A DNA stretch of 64,000 nucleotides from a virus. Location: the UHGV virus genome UHGV-1493261, one strand, 5' to 3'. Shown here in pieces: positions 2,035-31,799 of the stretch. Below the pieces are notes generated by a model that was not told where the DNA came from, did not search any database, and saw only the letters and a program-made list of their open reading frames with translations. The stretch's first letter is position 1. Each line of letters starts with the position of its first letter. The translations under genes were made by a program, and so were the position numbers.

Positions 2035-3543
2035 ATGGCAGACATTCAGATTGTTAAGGTTAACGAAGTCCGCATGCGTTGCATCGCAGATCTTTCTATC
2101 AGGGAAGAACTTAATGACTACTTCAAATTCGAAGACCCGAACTTCGTTCCCAACCCCTTCTCTAAATGGGACGGGGTTGTCCGCCTATTTACCAAGTCAT
2201 CTGGTCTAATCGATATCGGTCTGCTGTTTGAGGTATTTAAGTTCTGTAAGAACAACGGATACACCATTGAACTGGATCCGGCACTGAAGTACATTCAGGA
2301 CATCCCAGATGAAGAAATCCGTGACTTCATCGACAGTCTGCATCCAAAGATCCGCACCGAAAATCACGAATATATCGATGCCGAGACTCGTGACTACCAG
2401 TACGACACCATTGCCAAGGCTATGCGTCAAACCAGATGCGTCTGTGAACTGGCTACGAGTGCCGGTAAGTCCTTTATTCTGTATGTCATGGCGCGGTACT
2501 ACAGGCGGCGCAGAGAAGCTCTCGAAAGTCCTCTGAAGACGCTTATCGTGGTGCCGTCAATCCACCTAGTCACTCAGCTGTACGACAACTTCGAAGAGTA
2601 TGCGCATGGCAGTGATTGGAAGCCCGTTGTTAACACCCAGCTGATTTTTGAGGGCGCGACAAAGGATATCAGCAAACCAATCGTCATCAGTACATGGCAA
2701 GGCATTCAAGACCAGCCGAAGGAATGGTTCCACCAGTTCGGTGATATCGTGGTGGACGAAGTGCACACCTCCAAGTCTGAGAAACTGTCTTACATCCTAA
2801 ACAACTGCATCTATGCCGACCAGCGCCTGGGGGTTACAGGTACGCTGGCGAACACCAAAGTTGCCGGGCTTCAGGTGGTGGCTCACTTCGGGGCGTACCA
2901 TAAGATCATCACGGCTCGCGACCTTATCAATCTCGGGTACGCCACTGACATCAAAGTGAAGATGATTCAGCTGAAGCACACTCCGGCGGATGCCGTTGGT
3001 CTGGACGGGGATTATTCCAAGGAAATAGAATACCTTATTACACACCAGTCCCGCAACGAACTGATCGCAAAGATGGCGCTGAATCTGAAAGGAAACGTGG
3101 CCATCATGTTCGAGCGTATTGATGGCCACATGATGGTCGTGTATGATATGCTGAGCGCAGTCAAGCCCAACGTGTTTGTCATCAACGGGGAAGTGAAGAT
3201 CGAAGACCGCCGCCACATACAGAAAGCGATGGAGGACGGAGAGGACATCACCCTGTTAGCATCATACGGAACAATGCAGCAGGGTGTGTCAATCAATAAG
3301 CTGCACCACCTTGTACTGGCACACCCGAGCAAGTCATATATCCGCGTCATACAGACATTGGGTCGTCTGATGCGTCAGCACTCCTCTAAGGACGTTGCGT
3401 GGATATGGGACTTAGTTGATGATGCATCGTATAACGCCAGCACGAACCACGCTCTTAGGCACTCTCATGAGCGTTACAAGTTTTACCTGGCAGAGCGCCA
3501 CCCTGTGGAGTTCATGAAGGTGGCGCTGGGTAATCACGATTAA
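2035..3543 (+). CDS. uvsW: UvsW-like SF2 DNA helicase
   Basis: Start moved to ATG 2035 (GGGAGA RBS) inside track ORF 1942..3543. Walker A ATSAGKS, DEVH box, and C-terminal LHHLVLAHPSKSYIRVIQTLGRLMRQHSSKDVAWIWDLVDD nearly matching T4 UvsW LHHVVLAHGVKSKIIVLQTIGRVLRKHGSKTIATVWDLIDD. Confidence 0.85.
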   Translation: MADIQIVKVNEVRMRCIADLSIREELNDYFKFEDPNFVPNPFSKWDGVVRLFTKSSGLIDIGLLFEVFKFCKNNGYTIELDPALKYIQDIPDEEIRDFIDSLHPKIRTENHEYIDAETRDYQYDTIAKAMRQTRCVCELATSAGKSFILYVMARYYRRRREALESPLKTLIVVPSIHLVTQLYDNFEEYAHGSDWKPVVNTQLIFEGATKDISKPIVISTWQGIQDQPKEWFHQFGDIVVDEVHTSKSEKLSYILNNCIYADQRLGVTGTLANTKVAGLQVVAHFGAYHKIITARDLINLGYATDIKVKMIQLKHTPADAVGLDGDYSKEIEYLITHQSRNELIAKMALNLKGNVAIMFERIDGHMMVVYDMLSAVKPNVFVINGEVKIEDRRHIQKAMEDGEDITLLASYGTMQQGVSINKLHHLVLAHPSKSYIRVIQTLGRLMRQHSSKDVAWIWDLVDDASYNASTNHALRHSHERYKFYLAERHPVEFMKVALGNHD

Positions 3544-6948: not shown

Positions 6949-7821
6949 ATGACAACTACATTTTCTAAGAACGTGAATCTGAATCTGGCTTTCGGTAATG
7001 CAAAGGGCGACGTCACATCGCCTGACTTTGGTAAGATCCGCAATCAGGCGAAACTGGTGCTGGAAGAGACCCGCGAACTGCTGGAAGCGGCGTTCTTTGA
7101 CCATGATGTGAAGGTGGAATTCACTGCAACTCCACGAGTCCTGAAAGAACCTGTTGTTGTCGACATCAAAGGCATTATGCGCCAGATCATGGATGCCCAT
7201 GGCGACATCACAACAGTCAACGACGGTGTGGCTCATATTGCTGGTTTCGACGGTGACGAATGCCTACAGCGCGTGTATGCCTCTAACATGAGCAAGTTCG
7301 TCCGCAATGAAGGTGAAGTTGTTCCAGCGCTGGAGTATTACTACAACAAAGGCTTCCCACGCGAAAGTCTACGCATCGAAGGGGAATTCCCTCAGGCATG
7401 CATCAAAGTGGTGGACACCATCACCGTCGACGGCAAAGAATACCCGGCTGGCAAGTTCCTGAAGAACATGGCAACCTTCAAAGAGCCTGACTTCTCTGAT
7501 ATGTTGACCACCGAGCCTAAGCGCCAGATCACCGAAATCATTCTGACGGGCACGGCTACCCCAGGTCGACTCAGTTCTAACGAACATGCTGGTGTTGCCT
7601 ACGCGCCGTTCGATTTTATTGACGAGATCGTAGGATACACCAAGATGGGCTTCCAGGCGTTCTCTGGTGAAACAATCGAGAGTTATATTCCTGTGTTTGT
7701 TTTCAATGAAGACAACTTCCCAACTCTGCCGTTGATCTGGGGTGAATGGAAAGCCAACGTTCGTATCTATGTGTCCAGCCCAGTACAATCATCTATCACC
7801 CAACTGACCCGTATCGATTAA
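6949..7821 (+). CDS. hypothetical protein; possible N-terminal MazG-like NTP pyrophosphohydrolase motif
   Basis: 290 aa, TGGAG RBS. N-terminal KLVLEETRELLEAAFF resembles the MazG EExxELxEA helix. Remainder unassigned. Confidence 0.5.
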   Translation: MTTTFSKNVNLNLAFGNAKGDVTSPDFGKIRNQAKLVLEETRELLEAAFFDHDVKVEFTATPRVLKEPVVVDIKGIMRQIMDAHGDITTVNDGVAHIAGFDGDECLQRVYASNMSKFVRNEGEVVPALEYYYNKGFPRESLRIEGEFPQACIKVVDTITVDGKEYPAGKFLKNMATFKEPDFSDMLTTEPKRQITEIILTGTATPGRLSSNEHAGVAYAPFDFIDEIVGYTKMGFQAFSGETIESYIPVFVFNEDNFPTLPLIWGEWKANVRIYVSSPVQSSITQLTRID

Positions 7822-7843
7822 GATATACAGTTATTCACTAAAC

Positions 7844-7876
7844 AACAGAGGCTATAATGGCCTCTGTTTTCTTATT
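7844..7876 (+). terminator. rho-independent terminator with TATAATG loop
   Basis: ACAGAGGC / loop TATAATG / GCCTCTGT followed by TTTCTTATTCT, after the stop at 7821. Confidence 0.6.
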
Positions 7877-7889
7877 CTGTGAGGATACC

Positions 7890-9086
7890 ATGAAAGACAA
7901 AGCCCTGGACGTCCCGTACTGCGGTGTCCGCGAAGAAAAGATAAAGTCGGCCAAACCGGTTCTCAGTCCGACCCATACCCGCCTGTCTTACGAATGGATG
8001 CGCGATCGTTATCAGATCCACGTCAAGAAGGACGTCCAGCGCCTTCCTGCTCCTTGGACTGATAATCCCATATTACGCCAGGTTAAATTCTGTAACGTCC
8101 GGAGAGAGCACGACAGGCAGTCTCTCAACCTGATCAATAACATTGTCAAGAACGATGCTCTGGGCATGGCAGACAAGATGTTCAACTGCGTGTTGTTCCG
8201 CATGTTCAACCTCTGGGATCCGATCCAGGCTATCGGCGGCGCGATGACGATCAAAGAATTCGCCAAGATCAACCTCGATGCAACCCGCGAACGACTTCAG
8301 AAGTTCGAGGCCGACGGCGGTAAAGTATTCACCAATGCCTTCAACACGGGCGGTCTGAAGCAATGCCTGGCTTTCCCTGAGATGGTTGTCAACCACAAGG
8401 AGCAGCGCTTCGGTGGGATGATGGTGAATCTGATCTGTAAAGACGGTTCAACCCAGAACATGGATTATAAAGAAGCCAAGGCGATAGCCGAAGCAGAGCC
8501 GGACTTCTACACCATCGAAGGTTGGGAACCGTACATGCCAATGCGTGTCATCCGCTCCCTGAAGGCATTCGTCAACAAGTATCCAAATTATTTCCATGAC
8601 CTGCTGCGCCTTGATACGCCTTTGGAAGTATACCAGCGCATGTACGACGACATCGAAGGGCTTGGTCCATTCCTGGCCTATCAGATCTGGGTTGATTTCA
8701 CGTACATTCCTGGATATCCTTTCAGTGAGAACCACTTCACGGTTGCTGGACCAGGCTGTCGCGCAGGGATTGATCTTCTGTTCCTGAACAAAGACGGTAT
8801 GACCCACGAAGAATGCATCTTCTGGTTGCGGGACAATCAGGACGCAGTTTATGGTCCTCTTGGGTATAACAGGGAAGAATTTTGGTCTGAGGAAGAGCCT
8901 TGGGATCGCCATTTAAATATAATGGCAGGAGAAAATATGTTTTGTGAACTTCAGAAATATACCCGTTGTGTAGAGGCCATACAGCAAGGTAAAAAACCGC
9001 GCGGGAAGGTTGGATACGATGGGGAAGGACGACCTAAAGCGACGACATCTGGTTCTAAAAACCTACTAAATTTATTTAAAAAGTAA
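7890..9086 (+). CDS. hypothetical protein (aromatic-rich, about 399 aa)
   Basis: Start at ATG 7890 (GAGGA RBS) downstream of the terminator hairpin at 7844-7876. Track ORF 7857 begins inside that hairpin. No recognised motif. Confidence 0.55.
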   Translation: MKDKALDVPYCGVREEKIKSAKPVLSPTHTRLSYEWMRDRYQIHVKKDVQRLPAPWTDNPILRQVKFCNVRREHDRQSLNLINNIVKNDALGMADKMFNCVLFRMFNLWDPIQAIGGAMTIKEFAKINLDATRERLQKFEADGGKVFTNAFNTGGLKQCLAFPEMVVNHKEQRFGGMMVNLICKDGSTQNMDYKEAKAIAEAEPDFYTIEGWEPYMPMRVIRSLKAFVNKYPNYFHDLLRLDTPLEVYQRMYDDIEGLGPFLAYQIWVDFTYIPGYPFSENHFTVAGPGCRAGIDLLFLNKDGMTHEECIFWLRDNQDAVYGPLGYNREEFWSEEEPWDRHLNIMAGENMFCELQKYTRCVEAIQQGKKPRGKVGYDGEGRPKATTSGSKNLLNLFKK

Positions 9087-14090: not shown

Positions 14091-14267
14091 ATGACCGACA
14101 ACAAATTAAAACGCGCCGGACTTGATTGTCTTGACAATTCATTCCGCCCCAGTGATGTTCTGGTCGCCCAAATGGAAAACAACCGGGATTTCATTGAAAC
14201 TATGCTGGAGAACGCCGACGCGAACTCCAAACACTCCAAAGCCCAAAAAGGTCAAAACGATGATTGA
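14091..14267 (+). CDS. small hypothetical protein (58 aa)
   Basis: ATG 14091 after GAGAG; charged helical peptide; stop overlaps the start of the vWA gene by 8 nt. Below the 60-aa cut-off from this start. Confidence 0.3.
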   Translation: MTDNKLKRAGLDCLDNSFRPSDVLVAQMENNRDFIETMLENADANSKHSKAQKGQNDD

Positions 14268-16461
14268 GTCATTAACATTTAAGAATGCGGTTGCGACCGT
14301 CGCGCCGTCTAACCATGTAATCGTTGTGGATATCTCCGGTTCCATGTATCGTTCACTTCCAGAAGTCCGTAAGCATCTGAAGGAGAACCTGCCTTCCCTG
14401 GTGAAACCCGAAGATACTGTGAGCATCCTTTACTTTTCATCTCGCGGTGATTTCGGAACGGTATTTGCCGGACGTCAGATCGGTGTCGCATCTGACCTGA
14501 GCGAGCTGAATAAGCTGATCGACCGTTTCCTGCAACCATCCGGCTGTACTGGTTTTGTTGAGCCATTGAAACTGGCGATGGATACTGCGCGCGGCCTGAA
14601 GAAACCCGGCTACGTCAACAACCTGGCATTCATGACCGATGGTTATGACAACTGCTGGCGCTCCAATGAAATCCTGGATACCGCCGAAAAACTTCCTTCC
14701 GCGTTCGACAACGTTACATTCATCGAATACGGCTGGCACTGTAACCGTGAACTGCTGGCGCAGATGGCCGAACGCTCTGGTGCAACCCACGTTTTCGCCG
14801 AAGGTCAGACTGAATATCAGACCGAGCTGGAAAACGTGCTGAAGTCATCAGTGCCGAAGGTGAAAGTTGATGTCCCAGTCATCTACACCCATGCCATCTA
14901 CGTCGAAAACGGTGTGGCAACAGTACTGGCGGTGCAGGACGATGACGCTCACCCGGTCGGTTATGTGAGCATCCCTGAGAGCGTCACCAAGCTGTGGGTT
15001 GTAAACCCTAACATGATCGACCAGATGGATAGCCTGACGGACATCCAGGCGGCATACGTGCTGGCGTTCTACGGCGTACACACTATGGACGCAGATCTGG
15101 TTTGGGCTGCGCTGAAGAAGACGGGCGACGTTCGCTTCATCAAACAGTACAGCAACTGCTTCACCAAGCAGGACTACTCCAACATCAAGAACGATCTGAC
15201 CCAGGCCATCGTTGATGACCAGCTGCGCGGCGTTGACGGTATTGACTATGACCTGGTTCCAGCTGAAGATGCGACCACCGTCGTTGATGTGCTGACGTAC
15301 CTGGCTGAAGCTGGTGTGCCTGTTGCTACCAAGCATCCGATGTTCTCCTATAAGAGTATCGGGCGCGGTACGGTTCAGAAAACCGACGACACCGAAGACA
15401 AGCTGGCAGAACAGATCGCGAATGCTCAGTCCAAAGAAGAGCGTAAAGCCCTGGCTCTCAAGCTGGCAGAACACGAAGAGTGGAACCCGACGTTCGAACC
15501 TACCAACGACCTGGGTGTTGTGCCAATCAGCGATTTGGTCTATAATTCCGAACGCCCGAACATCAGTGTGCGTACAATTCAACACGGTACTGTGGCTGTG
15601 CCTGAATTCGCACAGAAGAAGTTTGGCCTGCCTGAAGAACTGGATACTTTCCAGTGGCGCAACTACACCATCGTCAAAGATGGTATCATCAACGTGAAGA
15701 CCCTGCCGTTCAAGGCTGATATCGAAGTTGTACAGAAGCTGATCGAAATGGGCGTCCACGTGTTTGGTGGTCCGGAAGTGTTCATCTTGAACCTGGAAAG
15801 CGTACCGCTGGTCAACCGCGCCATGGTCAAGAACATCAGTGCTGCTCAGTTCTTTGCGGATAATGTCCGTCTGGAAGCCCTGAAAGGCAAGCAGAAGGTG
15901 CTGAAGTTCTATCGAGACGCCCTGGTTGGTAAGGGTAACGCCAAAGGCCTGGCAGTACAGTACGGCGCTGAGGCGGCCGAGTTCCTGTCCTCCTATGGCA
16001 TCCGCGATTACGGCTTCTCACCGAAGACTGAGACCAAAGAGTCTACCGACTTCTACATGAGCCGTGAGCTGAACGTGAAGATCGCTGGCGCTTCTTCTCT
16101 ACCGTCTATCGCAGCGGTACAGAAGAAGATAGCCGAGAACAAGAAACTCAATGCTGGTGACTTGTTCATCGCCAATGCGCTGAAGGAGTACGAAGCATTC
16201 GTGAAGTCTCCTATGATCACTGCCGTGCCTGAAGCCTTACAGAAACATCTGATCGAAAACTGGATCGACGCTGCTGCCAAGGCGGCCATCACCGAAGTCC
16301 GTGCTCTGAACAAGACGCTGTCTAAAGTGGTGTATGGTATCGTTGCTGGTCATGGCTGGTTCACCGACCTCGACCTGGAAGAGTCCACCATGGAAGTTGA
16401 AGTGGATGGGGTGAAGTACAAGGTCACTGCCGAACTGGCAGAGAAAGAAATCAAAATCTAA
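14260..16461 (+). CDS. vWA-domain protein (MIDAS motif), 733 aa
   Basis: Start at ATG 14260 (AAAGG RBS) inside track ORF 14122. N-terminal VIVVDISGSM...ILYFSSRGD...FMTDG fits a von Willebrand A fold with DxSxS MIDAS. About 500 aa C-terminal unassigned. Confidence 0.7.
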   Translation: MIESLTFKNAVATVAPSNHVIVVDISGSMYRSLPEVRKHLKENLPSLVKPEDTVSILYFSSRGDFGTVFAGRQIGVASDLSELNKLIDRFLQPSGCTGFVEPLKLAMDTARGLKKPGYVNNLAFMTDGYDNCWRSNEILDTAEKLPSAFDNVTFIEYGWHCNRELLAQMAERSGATHVFAEGQTEYQTELENVLKSSVPKVKVDVPVIYTHAIYVENGVATVLAVQDDDAHPVGYVSIPESVTKLWVVNPNMIDQMDSLTDIQAAYVLAFYGVHTMDADLVWAALKKTGDVRFIKQYSNCFTKQDYSNIKNDLTQAIVDDQLRGVDGIDYDLVPAEDATTVVDVLTYLAEAGVPVATKHPMFSYKSIGRGTVQKTDDTEDKLAEQIANAQSKEERKALALKLAEHEEWNPTFEPTNDLGVVPISDLVYNSERPNISVRTIQHGTVAVPEFAQKKFGLPEELDTFQWRNYTIVKDGIINVKTLPFKADIEVVQKLIEMGVHVFGGPEVFILNLESVPLVNRAMVKNISAAQFFADNVRLEALKGKQKVLKFYRDALVGKGNAKGLAVQYGAEAAEFLSSYGIRDYGFSPKTETKESTDFYMSRELNVKIAGASSLPSIAAVQKKIAENKKLNAGDLFIANALKEYEAFVKSPMITAVPEALQKHLIENWIDAAAKAAITEVRALNKTLSKVVYGIVAGHGWFTDLDLEESTMEVEVDGVKYKVTAELAEKEIKI

Positions 16462-16465
16462 TCCA

Positions 16466-16493
16466 ACGGGCGGGTTGCCCCGCCTTTCTTTGG
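16466..16493 (+). terminator. GC hairpin with T-tract between vWA and ACP-like genes
   Basis: GGGCGGG / TTG / CCCCGCC then TTTCTTTGGG. Same hairpin family as the cassettes at 4972 and 17206. Confidence 0.45.
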
Positions 16494-16503
16494 GAGAAGT
16501 AGC

Positions 16504-16830
16504 ATGAGCAGTAAACCAACATATGTTGAAGTCATGCGTCATCTGGCTCAGTACGCCACTGACAATTTGAACTTAGATGCAGATGAGGTGAAATACCCAG
16601 ACGTCAAGAAAATGATTGACGGCGAAGTTGTCATAGACGATGCGTTGGACAAGTTTGCAGGCCTCCGCACCAAGAAAGATCTGGGTGGTGACGAACTCGA
16701 TACCATCGAAATCGTGATGGACCTGGAAGAAGAGTTCAACGTCGAAATCGACGACGGTTGGCTAGGTAGTAAAGGCGATGACCCGACCATGGGTGAACTC
16801 GCTGAACTCGTGGTTGCCCTGCGCAAATAA
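16504..16830 (+). CDS. acyl-carrier-protein-like protein lacking the phosphopantetheine serine
   Basis: DLGGDELDTIEIVMDLEEEFNVEID aligns with E. coli ACP [25 protein letters not shown] but has DELD in place of DSLD. GGGAGA RBS. Terminator at 16837-16866. Confidence 0.6.
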   Translation: MSSKPTYVEVMRHLAQYATDNLNLDADEVKYPDVKKMIDGEVVIDDALDKFAGLRTKKDLGGDELDTIEIVMDLEEEFNVEIDDGWLGSKGDDPTMGELAELVVALRK

Positions 16831-16836
16831 CAGAAG

Positions 16837-16866
16837 TCCCCAACAAACGTTGGGGATTTTTACTTT
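16837..16866 (+). terminator. rho-independent terminator
   Basis: TCCCCAAC / AAAC / GTTGGGGA then TTTTTACTTTT, after the ACP-like gene. Confidence 0.65.
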
Positions 16867-16872
16867 TAGGGG

Positions 16873-16902
16873 GTTTACTTCCTCTAAGGAATGTCCTATT
16901 AT
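16873..16902 (+). promoter_or_regulatory. sigma70/T4-early-like promoter (GTTTAC-N18-TATTAT)
   Basis: GTTTAC at 16873-16878, TATTAT at 16897-16902, upstream of gene 16954. Confidence 0.45.
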
Positions 16903-16953
16903 TCAATAACTGGCGAACGATGGGTTCACCGGGTTGAAAGGTAAGATTATATC

Positions 16954-17193
16954 ATGAAGAACAAAATGGTCGAAACTTCAGTAGAGATTGATCGCAATTG
17001 GGGATTGCTCCGCGCTAAAGGGTTCCGTCGTGTGTATGCGACCAAAGAAGTCTACGCACAGCGCCGTGACGTTATCATCAGCAAGAAAGGCAAAGAGTGG
17101 GTTGCTGAAGAAGTTGATGTCGAGACAGGCATCGTAGGAAAGGTAAAGGCCAAGGCCGTGATCCTCTTCGCTCTTCTGAAGCACATCAGTTAA
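16954..17193 (+). CDS. small basic hypothetical protein
   Basis: 79 aa. Initiation context AAGATTATATCATG. Upstream GTTTAC-N18-TATTAT promoter-like element. Confidence 0.5.
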   Translation: MKNKMVETSVEIDRNWGLLRAKGFRRVYATKEVYAQRRDVIISKKGKEWVAEEVDVETGIVGKVKAKAVILFALLKHIS

Positions 17194-17196
17194 TTC

Positions 17197-17240
17197 TATA
17201 ACTTTGGGCGGGGTATGATTACCCCGTCTATTTGAAATGC
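17197..17240 (+). promoter_or_regulatory. TATAAC / GC hairpin / ATTTGAAAT cassette
   Basis: TATAAC (17197-17202), hairpin GGGCGGGGTATGATTACCCCGTC (17206-17228), TATTTGAAATG (17229-17239), then AGGAACTATACCATG. Confidence 0.5.
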
Positions 17241-17252
17241 AGGAACTATACC

Positions 17253-17759
17253 ATGACCGATCAACAAATTCAAGATTTATTTTACCTCGTCCATGATAAG
17301 TCCCACATCATGCGCCCCGGTACTGTTTCCCCTGCCGTCCGTGATCTGGTGCAAGAATTGCGCGAACCACAGACGACCACACTTTATCGCGGGTTGCCTA
17401 AAGAGGACGTTGCGCGTTTAGAGATGATGTTTGAACGAGGCGACATGTTCCAGACATGGGATTCTTGCCTTAGCTTCAGTGAACTGAAGCATGTGGCCAA
17501 AAAATTTTCTAAATCGTACGGAACCCAAGCTGTTGCCCGCATTTGTTACAAACATCGAAACAGACTCCCGGAGGGGCTTAATGTCTATGGTTCTCTAGAA
17601 AAATTTGTGAACAAAGGCGATGAATCAGAAATGGATATGCTGGACTTGGCGTCCATGGAGAAAGAATGGATATTCTGCCAGCCTCGCGTCATACCAGTTT
17701 CAAGAAAAATGGCAACAGACGGGACGATGGTTTTTACCGTATCACTTGTTACTCTATAA
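17253..17759 (+). CDS. hypothetical protein
   Basis: Start at ATG 17253 with context AGGAACTATACCATG. Track start 17232 is a TTG inside the ATTTGAAAT element. 168 aa. Confidence 0.55.
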   Translation: MTDQQIQDLFYLVHDKSHIMRPGTVSPAVRDLVQELREPQTTTLYRGLPKEDVARLEMMFERGDMFQTWDSCLSFSELKHVAKKFSKSYGTQAVARICYKHRNRLPEGLNVYGSLEKFVNKGDESEMDMLDLASMEKEWIFCQPRVIPVSRKMATDGTMVFTVSLVTL

Positions 17760-17760
17760 C
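17732..17760 (+). promoter_or_regulatory. promoter-like element (TTTTAC-N17-TATAAC)
   Basis: TTTTAC 17732-17737 and TATAAC 17755-17760 with 17-nt spacer, inside the 3' end of gene 17253..17759, 5 nt before hairpin 17765-17786. Confidence 0.4.
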
Positions 17761-17764
17761 CCAC

Positions 17765-17796
17765 GGCGGGGTATGATTACCCCGCCCATTTGAAAC
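17765..17796 (+). promoter_or_regulatory. GC hairpin / ATTTGAAAC cassette
   Basis: Hairpin GGCGGGGTATGATTACCCCGCC (17765-17786) and CATTTGAAAC (17787-17796), then GAGACTATATCATG. Confidence 0.5.
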
Positions 17797-17810
17797 CAAG
17801 AGACTATATC

Positions 17811-18185
17811 ATGAAAAAGTTAATCCTCGCTGTTGCCCTGCTGGGCGCTTCCTTTGCTGCTGTTTCCGCTCCTCCTGTCATTACCGGGGTGTCTACCAAC
17901 GGTGTTTATGCTTTCAAGGCGTATGGTCAAGACCTCGTTCTGTATAAGAACGGGAAGATGATTGAGCGCTGCGTATCAGAAGACGTGAATCGTGGGATCG
18001 ACAATCAGGGTAGCCCATACGTCCTGGACATCTATGCCTGCTCCAACGGGACGAAGTCCTTTGGTGTCAAGACCTTTGGCAACGTCGCCGTCGGCGGCTG
18101 GGGCTTCATGATCGAAACCCGCAACCACCAACCGGTCAAGACCATGCAAGAAGAGTTCTTGATCTCTGTCGGGGGTACGTTATGA
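17811..18185 (+). CDS. exported small protein (signal peptide)
   Basis: Start at ATG 17811 (GAGACTATATCATG). MKKLILAVALLGASFAAVSA then PPV: typical Sec signal peptide with AxA site. Two Cys in mature part. Confidence 0.55.
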   Translation: MKKLILAVALLGASFAAVSAPPVITGVSTNGVYAFKAYGQDLVLYKNGKMIERCVSEDVNRGIDNQGSPYVLDIYACSNGTKSFGVKTFGNVAVGGWGFMIETRNHQPVKTMQEEFLISVGGTL

Positions 18186-18469
18186 CACCATCAGAGAGAA
18201 GTTCTATCAAGGAGATGATCAGAGACAAGGCGTGTGTTGGCCATACTCAGTCAGAGAACATCTTGCGCCTGATGGTAATAAAGAACGATATCGATAACAG
18301 CCGATTCCAAACAGCGTTGTATGGCATGCTGGAGTTTATATCGCGGTCATCTGATCTTGGCACGGTCCGATATCTTGATGATCTAACCAAGCTGTTGAAC
18401 ACGGGCGGGGAAACTTTCGACACCGCTCGTATCCTGATTGACGGTGGACCTGAAGAAGACGAGGTATAA
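18182..18469 (+). CDS. hypothetical protein
   Basis: 95 aa. ATGA start/stop overlap with the upstream gene. Confidence 0.45.
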   Translation: MTPSERSSIKEMIRDKACVGHTQSENILRLMVIKNDIDNSRFQTALYGMLEFISRSSDLGTVRYLDDLTKLLNTGGETFDTARILIDGGPEEDEV

Positions 18470-18470
18470 T

Positions 18471-18629
18471 TTGGATAAAGAATTGGTTTGGGAAATTGTG
18501 AAGGGTGTCCTAGTGATAATTGCGGTGGTTTTCATCTTGGGTGGGAACTTCTTCTATTGGTTATTCCGATCCGACCAGAAACGTCGCGAACGCAAGGAGA
18601 AAGAGAGAAAGGATCGATGGATGCGCTAA
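18471..18629 (+). CDS. small single-pass membrane protein (TTG start, tentative)
   Basis: In-frame TTG 18471 is 8 nt after GACGAGG. Peptide VWEIVKGVLVIIAVVFILGGNFFYWLF followed by a basic tail. Under 60 aa from this start. Confidence 0.3.
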   Translation: MDKELVWEIVKGVLVIIAVVFILGGNFFYWLFRSDQKRRERKEKERKDRWMR

Positions 18630-18661
18630 CTAAGGGATAACCCTATATCCCGAGGTGTGTC

Positions 18662-19111
18662 ATGTTCCTTACATCCTTTATTGACTGGTTGAACATCATT
18701 AACGGCCTGAGGATCCCTGTTGGGAACCTCGGGCTTTCTCGTTCTTCTATGCCGCAAATCGATGCCGACAAACAAGAAGATTTTCACAAATATCTTGAAG
18801 ACAACGGCGTGTCCATAGATGCTGCGCAAGTGCCCATCAAAATGCTTCGTCTTACCCAGAACGAAATCAACAAGATGAAGGTCTGGAAGATTATGAAGCA
18901 GATCAGAAATAAGAAACCTATGGGTCGAGTTTGGGTGTCTTCTGACAATTACGTTGTTGACGGTTCTCACCGATTTGTCGCTGCGTTGAACATGGACGGC
19001 AAACAGCGCATGAAGGTCTACAAAGTTGATTTACCAGCGATGGAATTTGTTAAACTCGCTAAACAGTTTCAGGGTGTGCGATACAGAACGGTCAGCGATA
19101 CCCGTTTCTGA
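18662..19111 (+). CDS. ParB/Srx-like nuclease domain protein
   Basis: VPIKMLRLTQ ... YVVDGSHRFVAALN matches the ParB N-terminal domain (DGxHR) signature. GAGGTG RBS. Confidence 0.5.
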   Translation: MFLTSFIDWLNIINGLRIPVGNLGLSRSSMPQIDADKQEDFHKYLEDNGVSIDAAQVPIKMLRLTQNEINKMKVWKIMKQIRNKKPMGRVWVSSDNYVVDGSHRFVAALNMDGKQRMKVYKVDLPAMEFVKLAKQFQGVRYRTVSDTRF

Positions 19112-19190
19112 ATACGATAGTTTATTGAATCCCTTTACTCATCATGGTGAGCCGCCTATCATTTCATCCAATGAAATAAGGAGAATCACC

Positions 19191-19877
19191 ATGAAACGTT
19201 TAATCCTCGGGGTTGTGCTGGCTGGTCTGGCATTACCCGCCGCTGCCAAGCTGAACTCCACAGGTGATAAACTGTGGTCCGACCTTTCCTATTGTGCTGG
19301 GTTCTCCCAGGCGGTTGCTATCGACAAGTCTGGTTCCATAGAGAACTTCGCTGAACTCTGGAACACAGGCAACGTCTCCACCGCTGTCATCAATGCCGGA
19401 ATTGAGTTCAACCGTTACAAACAGGGAGCCTATAACCTCAAGGGCTACCTCAATGACGACGAATTTAACCGTGGAGGCATGGAGGCTGGCGATTTGATCA
19501 TGACTGGGCGTATGGGCACCCAAGGCCGAATGACCGTAAGACAGTGCCGTTCGCTCCCTTCTCCGGCATTACAGAAGGGTGTGCAGATAGGCCGCCGTCA
19601 CCTGAACCTCATCAACGATGGCAACCAGTGCATCAAAGTATTCGAATACAGCGCTACGCAGACCTCTGATCGCGTCCTGAAGAAGGAATGGCGCACTCGC
19701 GCTCTCGGTCTCAGAGCCTGGCTGGTTGAGAACGATTATTACTTTGAAGACAGGGTTCAGAACGGTCTGAAAGACCTGGCCACGAATCTGAGCGTGAACC
19801 TTGATGATCCTCGCATGTCGCGCGAACTCCAGCAGACTCGTGTTGACTGCGACAATATGATGAAGGAGAACGAGTGA
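19191..19877 (+). CDS. exported protein (signal peptide)
   Basis: Start at ATG 19191 (AAGGAG RBS) inside track ORF 19026. MKRLILGVVLAGLALPAAA then KL signal peptide. Confidence 0.55.
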   Translation: MKRLILGVVLAGLALPAAAKLNSTGDKLWSDLSYCAGFSQAVAIDKSGSIENFAELWNTGNVSTAVINAGIEFNRYKQGAYNLKGYLNDDEFNRGGMEAGDLIMTGRMGTQGRMTVRQCRSLPSPALQKGVQIGRRHLNLINDGNQCIKVFEYSATQTSDRVLKKEWRTRALGLRAWLVENDYYFEDRVQNGLKDLATNLSVNLDDPRMSRELQQTRVDCDNMMKENE

Positions 19878-20203
19878 TGAAATGTAAAATCCTGCTCTTG
19901 TTGGTACTGATAGCCGGGTGTGTAAACGCCGCGCCACCGTCCAAACTGAACACATGTGTGGCATGGATGGAGACGTATCAGCAGTTCCACCCAGATGACA
20001 AAGATACATCTATCCTCTTGTCTGACTTCGAGGGAGAGCTGAAGCGCCTTGATCTGTTCAGTGTTGATCAGATAGAGAATGCGCTGGATCTTCCCATGAT
20101 GCTGACTGCGGCTGACAACAGTTCACAAACGAAGAAAGACCTGATGTATTGCCGGGGGATTGCCCAGGACTTTGTCGGATTTCAAAATAAAGTTTCGGGT
20201 TAA
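19877..20203 (+). CDS. lipoprotein (lipobox LIAGC)
   Basis: ATG 19877 overlaps the upstream stop (TGATG), AAGGAG RBS. MKCKILLLLVLIAGC: signal peptide ending in a lipobox cysteine. Confidence 0.55.
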   Translation: MKCKILLLLVLIAGCVNAAPPSKLNTCVAWMETYQQFHPDDKDTSILLSDFEGELKRLDLFSVDQIENALDLPMMLTAADNSSQTKKDLMYCRGIAQDFVGFQNKVSG

Positions 20204-20243
20204 AATTTTAGCTCTACATTGTGAACTGAAGGAATACACTGTG

Positions 20244-21110
20244 ATGCTCCTGACCAAAACAATCGCTGCAGCGATTATCGAAAAGAATAAGGCTTTTGCC
20301 CCCAACGCAGCCAAAGTTATGTTGGTACACGAAGACGCTCGCGTGATCTTCGCCGAGAAGTTCGAGATGGGCGCGAAGTTCTGGTATGCCGACAACTTAC
20401 GTGAGAGCAAACTTCAGGGTATCATCCACAAACTGACTCTGGTCGCCAAGCGTAATGACCAGGGTGACTGGGTCGGCGTTTCTGACTTCAGTACGAAGAT
20501 CACCCCAAAGGCTCCACTTTCTCGTCAAGAGCGCATTCTGGAAGCCCAGGAAAAGCTGCGTGCGGCTCGGAGTACCCCAAAGGCGAAACCAGATGCAAGC
20601 CCTGTCATCAAGCCAGCGGTTGTTCCTAAGTCCAAATACCTCCCGCCCGTGAGTCAAAAGGCTGTGGAGCAATTGGTTGAGAAGCGCAAGGGTGACGTTG
20701 TGATGAAGTCTGACTCTTCAGTGGAGCCGTTCAAGCCGGATCCAGCAGAAGTACAGGCGCTGGCAGAAAAGGTAAAGAATTCACAATTCATTTCCCTGCG
20801 TGAACTTGAACCGCCTACTCGCCGTCGTATCGCCAACGAGCTGTTTGTGTCGTTCAGGTCGGATGGCAAGATCGTCCTGTGCAAAGCCCTGCGCGATGCA
20901 ATCCCTTGGACAACTCTGAACATGATGGTCACTCGCGACTTCAAGCGTTTTGGTATCATGCAAGGCAAGGACTACAACGTGAACCAGAGTGGGACTTATG
21001 TTAATCGCGCCATGTGTGACAAACTGACCTTCCCAGAAGATACTGGAACGATCCGTGTCGTTCTGAATTGGGACGACAAGCTGAACATGTATGTTGGCGA
21101 TTTCCAATAA
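20244..21110 (+). CDS. hypothetical protein
   Basis: Start at ATG 20244 (AAGGAA RBS) inside track ORF 20160. 288 aa, Pro/Lys-rich linker in the middle. Confidence 0.5.
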   Translation: MLLTKTIAAAIIEKNKAFAPNAAKVMLVHEDARVIFAEKFEMGAKFWYADNLRESKLQGIIHKLTLVAKRNDQGDWVGVSDFSTKITPKAPLSRQERILEAQEKLRAARSTPKAKPDASPVIKPAVVPKSKYLPPVSQKAVEQLVEKRKGDVVMKSDSSVEPFKPDPAEVQALAEKVKNSQFISLRELEPPTRRRIANELFVSFRSDGKIVLCKALRDAIPWTTLNMMVTRDFKRFGIMQGKDYNVNQSGTYVNRAMCDKLTFPEDTGTIRVVLNWDDKLNMYVGDFQ

Positions 21111-21121
21111 TCAATAACCTC

Positions 21122-21160
21122 GGGCGGCTTATCATAAAGCTGCCCTTTCATTTGAGTGAC
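21122..21160 (+). promoter_or_regulatory. GC hairpin / ATTTGAG cassette
   Basis: Hairpin GGGCGGCTTATCATAAAGCTGCCC (21122-21145) and TTCATTTGAGTG, then ACTATATCATG 21167. Confidence 0.4.
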
Positions 21161-21166
21161 TATATC

Positions 21167-21829
21167 ATGGAAAAACTTTATTCTATTATCGTCGGTCCTG
21201 ATCCTGACGGATTATTCTTCGCCCCGTTGTCTTATATTGCCCACGCCCGTATCGGCAGCCATTACGCATATTGCACACGTGGCCACGACGGTTCCAATAT
21301 CCTCCATTATAGCCGCCTGAACGATTTCCTGGCACTTCAACCAGAAGATGTTGTGCTGGCGCGTCGCGTGTTCATCGACTTCAACGCTATGCACAACAAC
21401 GAAATTGACGCTCGCTATCATGCCATGCGTTCTATGGAAGGGGGAGACTGCATTTATCGTATCGACCATTTTAGTGAGTTTACCCAATCTATTGATTGGT
21501 TCGTTTCAGAAAAGACGTTGGGTGAAAGAATCGTCACAACTCCGTGGGCACATGCGGAACAACTTCGTGTGTCTACCGATGCGTACAAAGAAGTCGACAA
21601 TCTGTGCAACAAGTTCCGCATCTCTGTGACCTGTAATCAAGACCCGGGCGAAGAGATACAATGGACAGCCGAGTCTCCTCATTTCAGTGGCCTGGTGATG
21701 ACGGCCGAAACCCGTTCCCGTGCTGTTGTCCAGTTAGTACTCTGGGCGTTCTACCAGCGCACCCCGTTCTCATACATGGGACAGAAAGAGATTGATGAAC
21801 TCCTGAAGTCTCACGCGGTGGAGGTGTGA
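21167..21829 (+). CDS. hypothetical protein
   Basis: Start at ATG 21167 with context GACTATATCATG, preceded by a GC hairpin and ATTTGAG element. 220 aa. Confidence 0.5.
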   Translation: MEKLYSIIVGPDPDGLFFAPLSYIAHARIGSHYAYCTRGHDGSNILHYSRLNDFLALQPEDVVLARRVFIDFNAMHNNEIDARYHAMRSMEGGDCIYRIDHFSEFTQSIDWFVSEKTLGERIVTTPWAHAEQLRVSTDAYKEVDNLCNKFRISVTCNQDPGEEIQWTAESPHFSGLVMTAETRSRAVVQLVLWAFYQRTPFSYMGQKEIDELLKSHAVEV

Positions 21830-21830
21830 T

Positions 21831-22268
21831 ATGGCTGGCGTATGGTGTGATGTCTTGCTGGTTCGTTACAGCGTAAATGGGAGCACGCAAGTGTGTTCTG
21901 CTTTCTATCCGGTCCCGTTCTCTTCCGGTGGCCTGACGGTTCAGCGAGTTCTTGATATTGAGGCAGATCTGAACACGAAGCCATATATCGGTGATACACA
22001 AGTGTTGGGATACGATCTTCTGAACGAAATGTTGATCGATGAAGATCGTGTAGAAACCATTGTTAGCCGTCAAGAAATGGAGGTCTTGATGAAACCGGAA
22101 GGCACCGAAAAGACTGAAGTTCAAACGATGTCTGTGCCTGTCGCGCCAACACAGGAACGCCTTGATGCCATTGCTGGATTATTCACGTATGGATTTTGTG
22201 ATGATCGCATGGCTCGTGGTATCTATGCCGCCGCACTGGGCGTTGAGAAACAAACGGAGCAAATATGA
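21831..22268 (+). CDS. hypothetical protein
   Basis: 145 aa, GGAGG RBS. Confidence 0.45.
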   Translation: MAGVWCDVLLVRYSVNGSTQVCSAFYPVPFSSGGLTVQRVLDIEADLNTKPYIGDTQVLGYDLLNEMLIDEDRVETIVSRQEMEVLMKPEGTEKTEVQTMSVPVAPTQERLDAIAGLFTYGFCDDRMARGIYAAALGVEKQTEQI

Positions 22269-22534
22269 GCACAAAGACTGTAATCGTGTGGGGAGTCGGT
22301 ATGGGGCGTTGTTGTCCTCACAAGACGATCACATTCACACAGGATGACCGTGTAGAAATCTCTCGCATCGAGACAGCCGAAGCACCTGTTGGGGATTCAA
22401 TGATCAGAACTCCGGTGTCCCGTGTGCAGGTATTGCGCCCAGTAGTTGAGGTCATTTGCGAAGATTGCGGACAGCGCGGCACCATGATGTTGGAAGAGAA
22501 TTCTGATGAAGAAATCGTGGTGAAAGGCTATTAA
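22265..22534 (+). CDS. small Cys-containing hypothetical protein
   Basis: 89 aa. ATGA overlap with the upstream gene. CC...CEDC pattern suggests a possible zinc ribbon. Confidence 0.4.
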   Translation: MSTKTVIVWGVGMGRCCPHKTITFTQDDRVEISRIETAEAPVGDSMIRTPVSRVQVLRPVVEVICEDCGQRGTMMLEENSDEEIVVKGY

Positions 22535-31184: not shown

Positions 31185-31799
31185 ATGACGATGACAACGT
31201 TGAAGGCCATGGCCTTGTCCGTGACCTTTACCATTGCCAGCGGGAATGTGCACGCTTCCCAAAATACAAGTCAATGTGGTTATAATTTCTCCGAGCAACA
31301 ACTTAATACGATGGCAACCGCCTATCACGTAGGCAAGACACAAGATCTTGGCTACACTCTGGCCGCCATATCTTGGCGAGAGAGCCGCGCTGGTGAAGAT
31401 GTAGTGTCAATGCGATACGGCCTCAAGGCGGCCAACATGGGAGCCTTTCAGAACAAGGTGAAGACAGTTGGTGATCGCGAAGGTTGTAAGAATCGCAAGT
31501 GCTATGCCAATGTCGCCATAAAGTTGCTGACCGACCAAGAATATGCCGCGCAAGCCGCCCTCGATGAGATGCAGTTCTGGCTGACCTATCACAATCAGAA
31601 TATCCGCAAATCCCTCTCCTCTTACAATGCTGGCTTCGCCCGTAATCCTGCATCGAACGCTTATGCTGCCGACGTCGTGAAGAAAGCTAAATATCTTCAG
31701 AAATGTGTGTCTTTCGAAGGCCGGACCATCTCCGAGGTAGATCCTCAGGTGATCGCCATGAACAAGCACACAATAGAGAAACTGAAGAGGACAAGATAA
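31185..31799 (+). CDS. exported protein, possible lytic transglycosylase-like
   Basis: Signal peptide MTMTTLKAMALSVTFTIASGNVHA. ISWRESRAG ... GAFQ ... SYNAG loosely resemble SLT motifs (ES...GA.GLMQ, AYNAG). AAGGAA RBS. Confidence 0.45.
   Translation: MTMTTLKAMALSVTFTIASGNVHASQNTSQCGYNFSEQQLNTMATAYHVGKTQDLGYTLAAISWRESRAGEDVVSMRYGLKAANMGAFQNKVKTVGDREGCKNRKCYANVAIKLLTDQEYAAQAALDEMQFWLTYHNQNIRKSLSSYNAGFARNPASNAYAADVVKKAKYLQKCVSFEGRTISEVDPQVIAMNKHTIEKLKRTR

Follow-up and report, generated by a model that had tools for sequence, protein, structure and literature searches.

A predicted periplasmic protein pair, a solo ParB/sulfiredoxin-fold protein and accessory envelope genes as neighbours in the early/middle arm of an Ackermannviridae genome

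The genes considered here lie at positions 17811 to 20203 of a 64,000-nucleotide stretch (the window) of the virus genome UHGV-1493261, in which the original prediction saw a cluster of exported proteins, a lipoprotein, a small membrane peptide and a ParB-like nuclease-domain protein. The five open reading frames (ORFs) it named are all present on the plus strand with the boundaries it gave, follow sensible Shine-Dalgarno sequences and are kept in hundreds of Ackermannviridae genomes, and independent annotations of the phages AV101, Marshall and vB_CECAV_050 give identical gene boundaries; a sixth gene among them (B, 18182-18469) had been missed. In order, and all on the plus strand, these are A (17811-18185), for a 124-residue predicted Sec-exported protein with two cysteines; B, for a 95-residue acidic, fast-evolving and apparently cytoplasmic protein; C (18471-18629), for a probable 52-residue single-pass membrane peptide with a TTG start; D (18662-19111), for a 149-residue solo ParB/sulfiredoxin (Srx)-fold protein of isoelectric point (pI) 9.9; E (19191-19877), for a 228-residue predicted Sec-exported periplasmic protein with four invariant cysteines; and F (19877-20203), for a 108-residue predicted exported acidic protein (pI 4.4) that has the lipoprotein form in this phage. 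A sigma-70-like promoter candidate occupies the gap between D and E (19134-19162, plus strand). A conserved gene for a 288-residue cytoplasmic protein (G288, phrog_3828) and a terminator-like hairpin (21122-21145) follow F on the same strand (20244-21145), and it is probably here that the transcription unit of E and F ends.

By its sequence matches the source genome is a Vi01-like member of the Ackermannviridae. Over the 4 kb around the genes identity is 98% to vB_EcoM-ZQ1 and AV101, both of them Escherichia phages, and 92-97% to other Ackermannviridae, and a megablast search with the stretch matched 275 phage records. The phage context had been read correctly, and the comparison with T4 has to be amended in that the genome is not a T4 relative in the narrow sense. 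Local guanine plus cytosine content is about 49%, with no anomaly around the genes. The corresponding block of AV101 belongs to the replication and early/middle arm, with a clamp loader, RegA, phosphoribosyl pyrophosphate synthetase, NAMPT, a vWA protein and an acyl carrier protein upstream, and an HU-like protein, a helicase, RNase H and gp55 downstream. In a crude scan of the 157 kb AV101 genome only about four genes for soluble proteins had Sec-type N-termini, A, E and F accounting for three of them, and the crowding of exported proteins within 2.4 kb that had been pointed out is real and exceeds chance. The only other soluble Sec-exported candidate found lies at 31185-31799 (plus strand), is annotated in AV101 as "Vs.1 conserved hypothetical protein", has a signal peptide ending in SGNVHA/SQ (slashes mark presumed cleavage points throughout) and contains an AISWRESRAG segment that recalls lytic transglycosylase motifs.

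Conservation was followed across 25 related loci, drawn from viral contigs, annotated phage records and two contigs with distant homologs. D, E and F stand in that order in all 25, A is found in 11 and C in nine, and B is detected in most of them in highly divergent form. D, with its full set of motifs, still stands beside the same helicase gene in the Vibrio phages K364 and YC and the Pseudomonas phage Cygsa01, which have no E- or F-like exported proteins, and because of this it seems to be the older gene, independent of E and F, which among the genomes examined appear only in Enterobacterales phages and closely related contigs. A view of D, E and F as one functional unit was rejected for the same reason. 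Equally A and C, absent from many close relatives, look like dispensable accessory genes. The five ORFs had been put forward as a cluster; with D found apart from E and F in distant Ackermannviridae, and A and C coming and going, they appear rather to be unrelated neighbours, and the region a juxtaposition of functionally independent genes and not one system. A comparison of positions 17000-22500 with a set of related loci (L009-L027) also reveals a mosaic: one of them (L009) is identical to the window in E (100%) and falls to 93% in F, 84% in D and 68% in B, and another (L013) has 99% identity in D, 96% in E, 70% in F and 52% in B. Since identity thus jumps between adjacent genes of single genomes, frequent recombination inside the block is indicated.

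Signal peptides were called from the anatomy of the n-, h- and c-regions, the −3/−1 rule and retention of the cleavage motif across orthologs, and lipoproteins from the pattern [LVI][ASTVI][GAS]C; by these manual rules and by conservation A and E show Sec signal-peptide features, and F in the window those of a lipoprotein signal peptide. E begins MKRLILGVVLAGLALPAAA/KL behind an AAGGAG Shine-Dalgarno sequence, and its N-terminus reads as a cleavable Sec signal peptide and not as a membrane anchor of about 20 residues, because the hydrophobic h-region is short and an invariant signal-peptidase-I site follows it. The uncharged run has 16 residues, the h-region has 10-13 residues across orthologs and distant homologs, and in an alignment of 22 orthologs P16, A17 and A19 at the signal-peptidase site are invariant and the h-region varies. 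Small residues are kept at −3 and −1 in the site variants (LPATA/K, LPVVA/K, IPASA/K and LPAHA/G), and in the distant homologs P0072, P0078 and P0071 h-regions of 10-12 residues precede FHASA/A, STANA/G and TSAWS/E. The mature form of E is neutral, and the four invariant cysteines of the family are C35, C119, C147 and C220. At Serratia-phage-type loci E is only 126 residues long and keeps just the first two of these cysteines, with F still following, which suggests an N-terminal domain (C35-C119) that pairs with F and a dispensable helical C-terminal domain (C147-C220). The ratio of nonsynonymous to synonymous substitution rates (dN/dS) for E is 0.035-0.066, against 0.13-0.27 for B and G288, so that E is among the most constrained proteins of the block, and this argues for strong purifying selection and against a target engaged in an arms race. 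The family is small, with 11 matches among 1.84 billion representative proteins, those traced being on Ackermannviridae-like contigs.

F begins MKCKILLLLVLIAGC and in the window carries the predicted lipobox LIAGC, with valine at +2. As a statement about the family the lipoprotein assignment does not hold: among 46 full-length representatives of clusters formed at 90% identity the lipobox is present in seven, and the other 39 place a signal-peptidase-I-type signal peptide before the same mature domain, so the lipid form would seem to be a minority, derived state. At 23 syntenic F loci the lipobox is missing from 19, with the mature domain and both of its cysteines kept, and one near-identical relative has LMAGS in place of LMAGC. 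The plain signal peptides end in VHA/A, VVA/T, VLA/A, ALA/V, AQA/A, ASA/Q or ARA/D. Mature F (94 residues, acidic) follows the pattern xPxSKLNxCxAW...YCR, with the invariant cysteines C27 and C92 near the ends of the domain, and its two conserved cysteines and mere four prolines suggest a folded domain. The protein matches phrog_3843 at E=1.5e-54.

The signal peptide of F (19877-19930, compared with orthologs L007-L029) is hypervariable, with at least six unrelated types of 17-29 residues, one of them the lipobox type, in front of a mature domain that is 60-99% identical across enterobacterial-phage orthologs and 30-47% identical in the most distant ones; the C-terminus of E just upstream is nearly invariant. 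Either cassette-like recombination or relaxed constraint might account for this variability. An earlier statement that F is the only lipoprotein of the genome was withdrawn, there being a second, weaker candidate outside the window. It lies at 113876-114526 in AV101, about 2.3 kb beyond the window start, and at 95624-96196 in Vibrio phage YC, on the opposite strand and with the gp3 tail-completion and UvsY genes as neighbours. It has about 190-216 residues, an N-terminus running to LLFTSC/R or LLMSC/R and no C-terminal membrane segment, and it is conserved between AV101 and YC (BLASTP E=1e-13).

The start of F overlaps the stop of E by 1 nt (TGATG), the Shine-Dalgarno sequence of F (AAGGAG) is embedded in the conserved C-terminal KENE codons of E, and an overlap of 1 or 4 nt was seen in all 23 loci checked. 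This arrangement indicates coupled translation of the two proteins, from which we infer a stoichiometric complex. The promoter candidate upstream of E, found by a consensus scan, reads TTTACT-17 nt-TATCAT and is preceded by ATTGAA; its −35 element TTTACT is conserved across Kuttervirus, Agtrevirus and Klebsiella-phage loci, with TATCAT or TACTAT at −10 and a spacer that varies. The pattern has four matches on the plus strand of the window and none on the minus strand, with 0.64 expected per strand, and a similar element (TTTACT-17-TATTAT) is intergenic at 16874-16902 (plus strand). T4-type late promoters (TATAAATA) occur at three sites in the window, none of them near these genes. The literature searched held no experimental work on lysis genes, exclusion genes or temporal transcription in Ackermannviridae.

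For E and F the exported topology originally proposed agrees with the signals just described, and what had been missed is that the pair already bears a published bioinformatic label. Their counterparts in phage Marshall, gp94 and gp95 (98% identical to E and F), are annotated as i-spanin and o-spanin, and PHROG 3843, the family of F, is labelled "Rz-like spanin". The Marshall genes are listed in SpaninDB as a "separated" two-component spanin, in a survey whose calls rest on membrane-localisation signals and gene linkage judged by a manual protocol and on no experiment (Kongari et al. 2018). If the label were right the pair would fuse inner and outer membranes at lysis, and the adjacency and overlap of the genes, the hydrophobic N-terminal segment of E, the lipobox of F with its outer-membrane sorting residue and the fact that the genome has just one other lipoprotein candidate besides F all speak for it. 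An i-spanin has a type II N-terminal transmembrane domain, and every E ortholog instead has the short h-region and the invariant P-A-x-A/K site. The lipobox expected of an o-spanin is lacking from the 39 F clusters noted above, which include phiMAM1 and Bue1, named "Rz-like spanin" by NCBI all the same. Nor is mature F the short, proline-rich or unstructured periplasmic domain that many (if not all) o-spanins have. Linkage to a holin or endolysin, or late expression, is not seen either: in AV101 an endolysin-type gene (PG-binding/DUF3380-like) is about 20 kb away and no late promoter is near, a weak argument given that T4-like phages scatter their lysis genes.

The survey that supplied the label contains further points against it. 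The Marshall pair is an extreme outlier in its tables, being the longest spanin pair with 300 periplasmic residues, its "i-spanin" having 35% helix and no coiled coils and its "o-spanin" 56% helix, with the qualification that more than 120 other i-spanins also have no coiled-coil predictions (Kongari et al. 2018). The same paper classes 91 phages as "spanin-less", ten of them from this group, namely CBA120, PhaxI, ECML-4, Vi01, SFP10, Maynard, SJ2, SJ3, phiSboM-AG3 and Dickeya RC-2014 (Table 10). In the records searched here Maynard and phiSboM-AG3 are Ackermannviridae, and homologs from the E/F region are found in PhaxI, SFP10 and Dickeya phages. We take all ten listed phages to be Ackermannviridae. 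Canonical spanin membership of E and F was rejected on the cleavable signal peptide of E, the unconserved anchor of F (seven of 46) and this spanin-less listing, and a genuine two-component spanin is in our estimate very unlikely. No published test of outer-membrane disruption by E and F, or of complementation of lambda Rz/Rz1, was found in the literature.

E and F could form a non-canonical lysis module, a soluble pair that disrupts the outer membrane with no membrane anchors of its own or that times lysis through the periplasmic domain of the holin in the manner of T4 RI. Enterobacterial Ackermannviridae have no recognised spanin, the two genes are periplasmic in predicted location, core to all 25 loci and strongly constrained, and the family encodes rIIA and rIIB, all of which would fit. 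Set against this, the promoter-like element is of sigma-70 and not of late type, and searches linked neither protein to RI, to disruptin or to any lysis family. A whole-genome scan of Vibrio phage YC, which has D and no E or F, found no canonical spanin pair there, so the complementary distribution that such a substitution might leave is not observed. We regard this module as quite unlikely. Rather improbable, too, is the related idea of an unrecognised envelope module in which a soluble disulfide-bonded periplasmic heterodimer, optionally lipid-tethered and core to the enterobacterial Ackermannviridae, would bring about or govern lysis at its outer-membrane step and yet not bridge the two membranes.

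D is distinct from all of this. The motif VVDGSHRF, from which a ParB/Srx-like domain had been proposed, is present, and a structural test confirmed the ParB/Srx alpha+beta fold; the worry that catalytic arginine and histidine residues might be lacking is met by the invariance of His103 and Arg104. Invariant residues are R27, M30-P31-Q32, L64-x-Q66-N67-E68-x-N70-K71, D100-G101-S102-H103-R104, R142 and S145, the D100-R104 motif being invariant in 25 sequences down to 39% identity and kept in the Vibrio and Pseudomonas phage orthologs. A dN/dS of 0.02-0.10 indicates strong constraint. Sequence profiles recognise the protein poorly. It has no Pfam or NCBIfam match, and among 25 homologs none reached the gathering score of ParBc (PF02195), ParBc_2 (PF08857) or ddrB-ParB (PF18763), the best E-values, 0.073 for ddrB-ParB and 0.081 for ParBc_2, coming from one member each and lying far below the cut-off. 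Membership of the ParB/Srx superfamily, as a phage-specific clade, is nevertheless solid on fold and motifs. A partition ParB of plasmid or chromosome type, or a sequence-specific DNA-binding regulator, might be thought of from a weak match to phrog_1033, "ParB-like partition protein" (E=0.0016), and from the presence of ParB, Noc and KorB among the structural neighbours. Yet 149 residues, with an aligned ParB/Srx core of about 80-100, leave no room for helix-turn-helix (HTH) or dimerisation domains, the motif is DGSHR and not GERRxRA, no parA is annotated nearby in AV101, Marshall or vB_CECAV_050, the ParBc threshold is unreached and the phage family is virulent, so that such a role is extremely improbable.

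As a solo phage protein D has wide company. A tblastn search placed its family in 421 phage records, its neighbours in BFVD include solo proteins of 121-195 residues and fusions of up to about 1,300 residues, and D-like domains sit within a 3,867-residue "PLxRFG protein" of Klebsiella phage ZX1, after a tail-fibre-domain gene, and within a 4,514-residue protein of Ralstonia phage Eline; these very large proteins gave no significant match to the Pfam ddrB-ParB family. The label "cytidyltransferase" carried by D in vB_CECAV_050 (PQ306799.1) was rejected as a probable transfer from a protein in which D-like and cytidyltransferase-like domains are fused. Solo ParB domains of phages and those of polyvalent proteins have been described as head-packaged early effectors that are probably nucleoside triphosphate (NTP)-regulated DNases (Iyer et al. 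2017, PMC5512222). With a complete nucleotide-phosphate-binding motif (DGSHR) and an acidic/amide motif (QNE), D would bind or hydrolyse NTP, or nick DNA, in the host cytoplasm, and it may be carried in the virion to act at the start of infection like the ParB modules of those polyvalent proteins. The D ortholog of phage Sajous1 (gp192, identified by synteny) gave 11 spectra in CsCl-purified virions, and gp193 and gp194, the E and F orthologs, are not among the virion proteins listed as detected (PMC10892097, Table 6). In the records rabagast and dinky D is named a "putative structural protein".

Overall we lean, by a little, to a reading in which the region is a set of independent genes of the early/middle arm, with D a solo ParB/Srx protein, E and F an exported periplasmic pair and A and C accessory. 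Coupled translation would yield E and F together, early in infection and probably under a sigma-70-type promoter of their own, and Sec would export them; in the periplasm each would fold with disulfides and the two would most likely form a complex. In this phage the lipid on F would tether the complex to the inner leaflet of the outer membrane, and in most relatives it would be soluble. The strong conservation suggests that they act on a conserved target, which could come from the phage itself or be a conserved part of the host envelope. That the target is a host periplasmic or outer-membrane component, worked upon for the phage's own replication and unrelated to exclusion of other phages, would agree with the strong purifying selection seen in phages whose hosts are Salmonella, Escherichia, Klebsiella, Dickeya and Serratia, and with the absence of E and F from the Vibrio and Pseudomonas relatives examined, as for an Enterobacterales-specific target; a conserved phage target fits equally and no search suggests a host one, and we consider this version unlikely. 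Within our preferred reading of a periplasmic pair the role assigned, with low confidence, is protection against superinfection, functionally like that of T4 Spackle or Imm, or conditioning of the envelope. Exclusion or receptor masking by E, F and A, as first suggested, is possible, and a specific superinfection-exclusion function of E and F is put forward tentatively, as less likely than not, from topology, timing signals and conservation.

Several observations weigh against this picture. No homology ties E and F to exclusion: they matched no PDB sequence and no annotated family in PDB sequence and profile, Pfam, NCBIfam, PADLOC and PHROG searches, the PDB searches with A, D, E and F gave matches at chance level only, and for Imm, Sp, Llp and Cor no homology was seen, PHROG (at E<=10), Pfam, NCBIfam and PADLOC returning only the proteins' own unannotated families. 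An AlphaFold2 model of E built from 22 sequences reached a mean confidence (pLDDT) of 41.8 and was too poor for a fold search, because the family is too shallow. Signal-peptide cleavage and lipidation are judged by rules, and the promoter upstream of E is a putative one, a consensus match with conservation. That F is one of two lipoprotein candidates in a family with no recognised spanin makes a lysis role possible. As to delivery of D, the Sajous1 virion table also lists RegB (31 spectra), SSB and glutaredoxin, and its authors warn that low counts may be contamination (PMC10892097), on account of which the virion evidence is weak; and no late promoter was seen upstream of D.

A begins MKKLILAVALLGASFAAVSA and matches phrog_5474 at E=9e-52, with no match in Pfam, NCBIfam, PDB or PADLOC. 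Both E and A had been credited with clean Sec signal peptides, and for E this stands; A has the signal peptide, with an uncertain cleavage point. Klebsiella-phage versions have a canonical AQA/D or AHA/D, and the aligned site in the window is VSA/PP with proline at +1, because of which cleavage may take place a few residues earlier, after SFA. B (phrog_4458, pI 4.6) has neither a hydrophobic segment nor a signal sequence, and its orthologs range from 26 to 99% identity with a dN/dS of 0.14-0.26 where measurable. The small membrane peptide C was well called. Its TTG start is supported by GAGG 6 nt upstream and by ATG and GTG at the same codon in two relatives (L009 and L013), and behind its single hydrophobic segment (KD19 2.66) comes a highly basic tail, from which an N-out/C-in topology is predicted. 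The Marshall and AV101 annotations call C a membrane protein, and it matches phrog_14464, "membrane protein", at E=4e-22; scans of Pfam, NCBIfam and PHROG gave no annotated homologs for A or C.

Just upstream, at 17253-17759 (plus strand), a 168-residue protein has a match (E=1e-15) to the C-terminal portion of phrog_832, "RNA polymerase ADP-ribosylase", and shows candidate R-S-ExE motifs (LYRG, LSFS and EKEW) as in T4 Alt, ModA and ModB; the upstream ADP-ribosyltransferase-like gene is present in five of the 25 loci. From 14122 to 16830 (plus strand), directly upstream again, come a large vWA-domain-like protein, which one record calls a "tail protein" and others call "hypothetical", and after it an acyl carrier protein of 108 residues with a phosphopantetheine-site match, a combination that is unusual in a phage. 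Further envelope genes, all of them outside the window, are found in relatives just downstream of the E/F block. Sajous1 (L033) has a "putative superinfection exclusion protein", a LysM protein and an SPFH/Band-7 lipoprotein at 15448-17070, another locus (L008) a membrane protein and a Band_7 lipoprotein with an LTGC lipobox at 7028-8028, and a third (L007) another secreted protein of 110 residues at 2745-3077. With neighbouring positions so occupied in relatives, the arm seems to be a hot spot that gathers accessory envelope genes.

By way of PHROGs, Pharokka and RefSeq the names "i-spanin" and "Rz-like spanin" now stand in hundreds of Ackermannviridae genomes, among which are many candidates for phage therapy. 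Their origin is a single call in Marshall, made from topology, and even orthologs without a lipobox receive them, for which reason the propagated annotation is best treated as unsupported. E and F offer a testable candidate for the breach of the outer membrane by "spanin-less" phages, or for Spackle-like exclusion, and the lipobox polymorphism of F, with lipid-anchored and soluble forms of one conserved domain, is a natural experiment on anchoring. D adds a phage ParB/Srx clade not covered by Pfam, which links solo proteins of large myoviruses with modules of very large podophage proteins, and which may be delivered with the DNA. On present evidence there is no new kind of system here.

Compared with the ParB/Srx superfamily, represented by pNOB8 ParB-N (5k5d), sulfiredoxin (6ky4, 1xw3), the serine kinases SerK/SbnI (5x0b, 5ujd), PadC, KorB, Noc and the DdrB-like phage ParB domains, D has its own conserved N-terminal segment (N14, P19, G21, R27 and MPQ) and a C-terminal RTxSD motif, and it has no HTH, ParA partner, fused methylase or fused peptidase. 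With the two-component spanins (lambda Rz/Rz1, T4 PseT.3/PseT.2 and, as annotated, Marshall gp94/gp95) E and F share adjacent overlapping genes and cysteine-containing periplasmic products, a hydrophobic N-terminal segment in the first and, in this phage, a lipobox with an outer-membrane sorting residue in the second. They differ from spanins in the apparently cleavable signal peptide of E where a type II anchor would be, in the lipid anchor that is mostly absent from F, in long periplasmic domains (206 and 94 residues) of which that of E has no predicted coiled coil and that of F is helical and not proline-rich, and in lying outside a lysis cassette with no late promoter nearby. T4 Spackle is a small, disulfide-containing, helical periplasmic protein. 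From it, and from Imm, T5 Llp and Cor, E and F differ in making up a two-protein module, with no detectable sequence similarity to any of the four. They resemble these in being, by prediction, small exported, lipoprotein or membrane proteins of a virulent phage whose genes are placed among early genes, and the mature domain of F, with two invariant cysteines and 56% predicted helix (Kongari et al. 2018), appears to be of the Spackle class.

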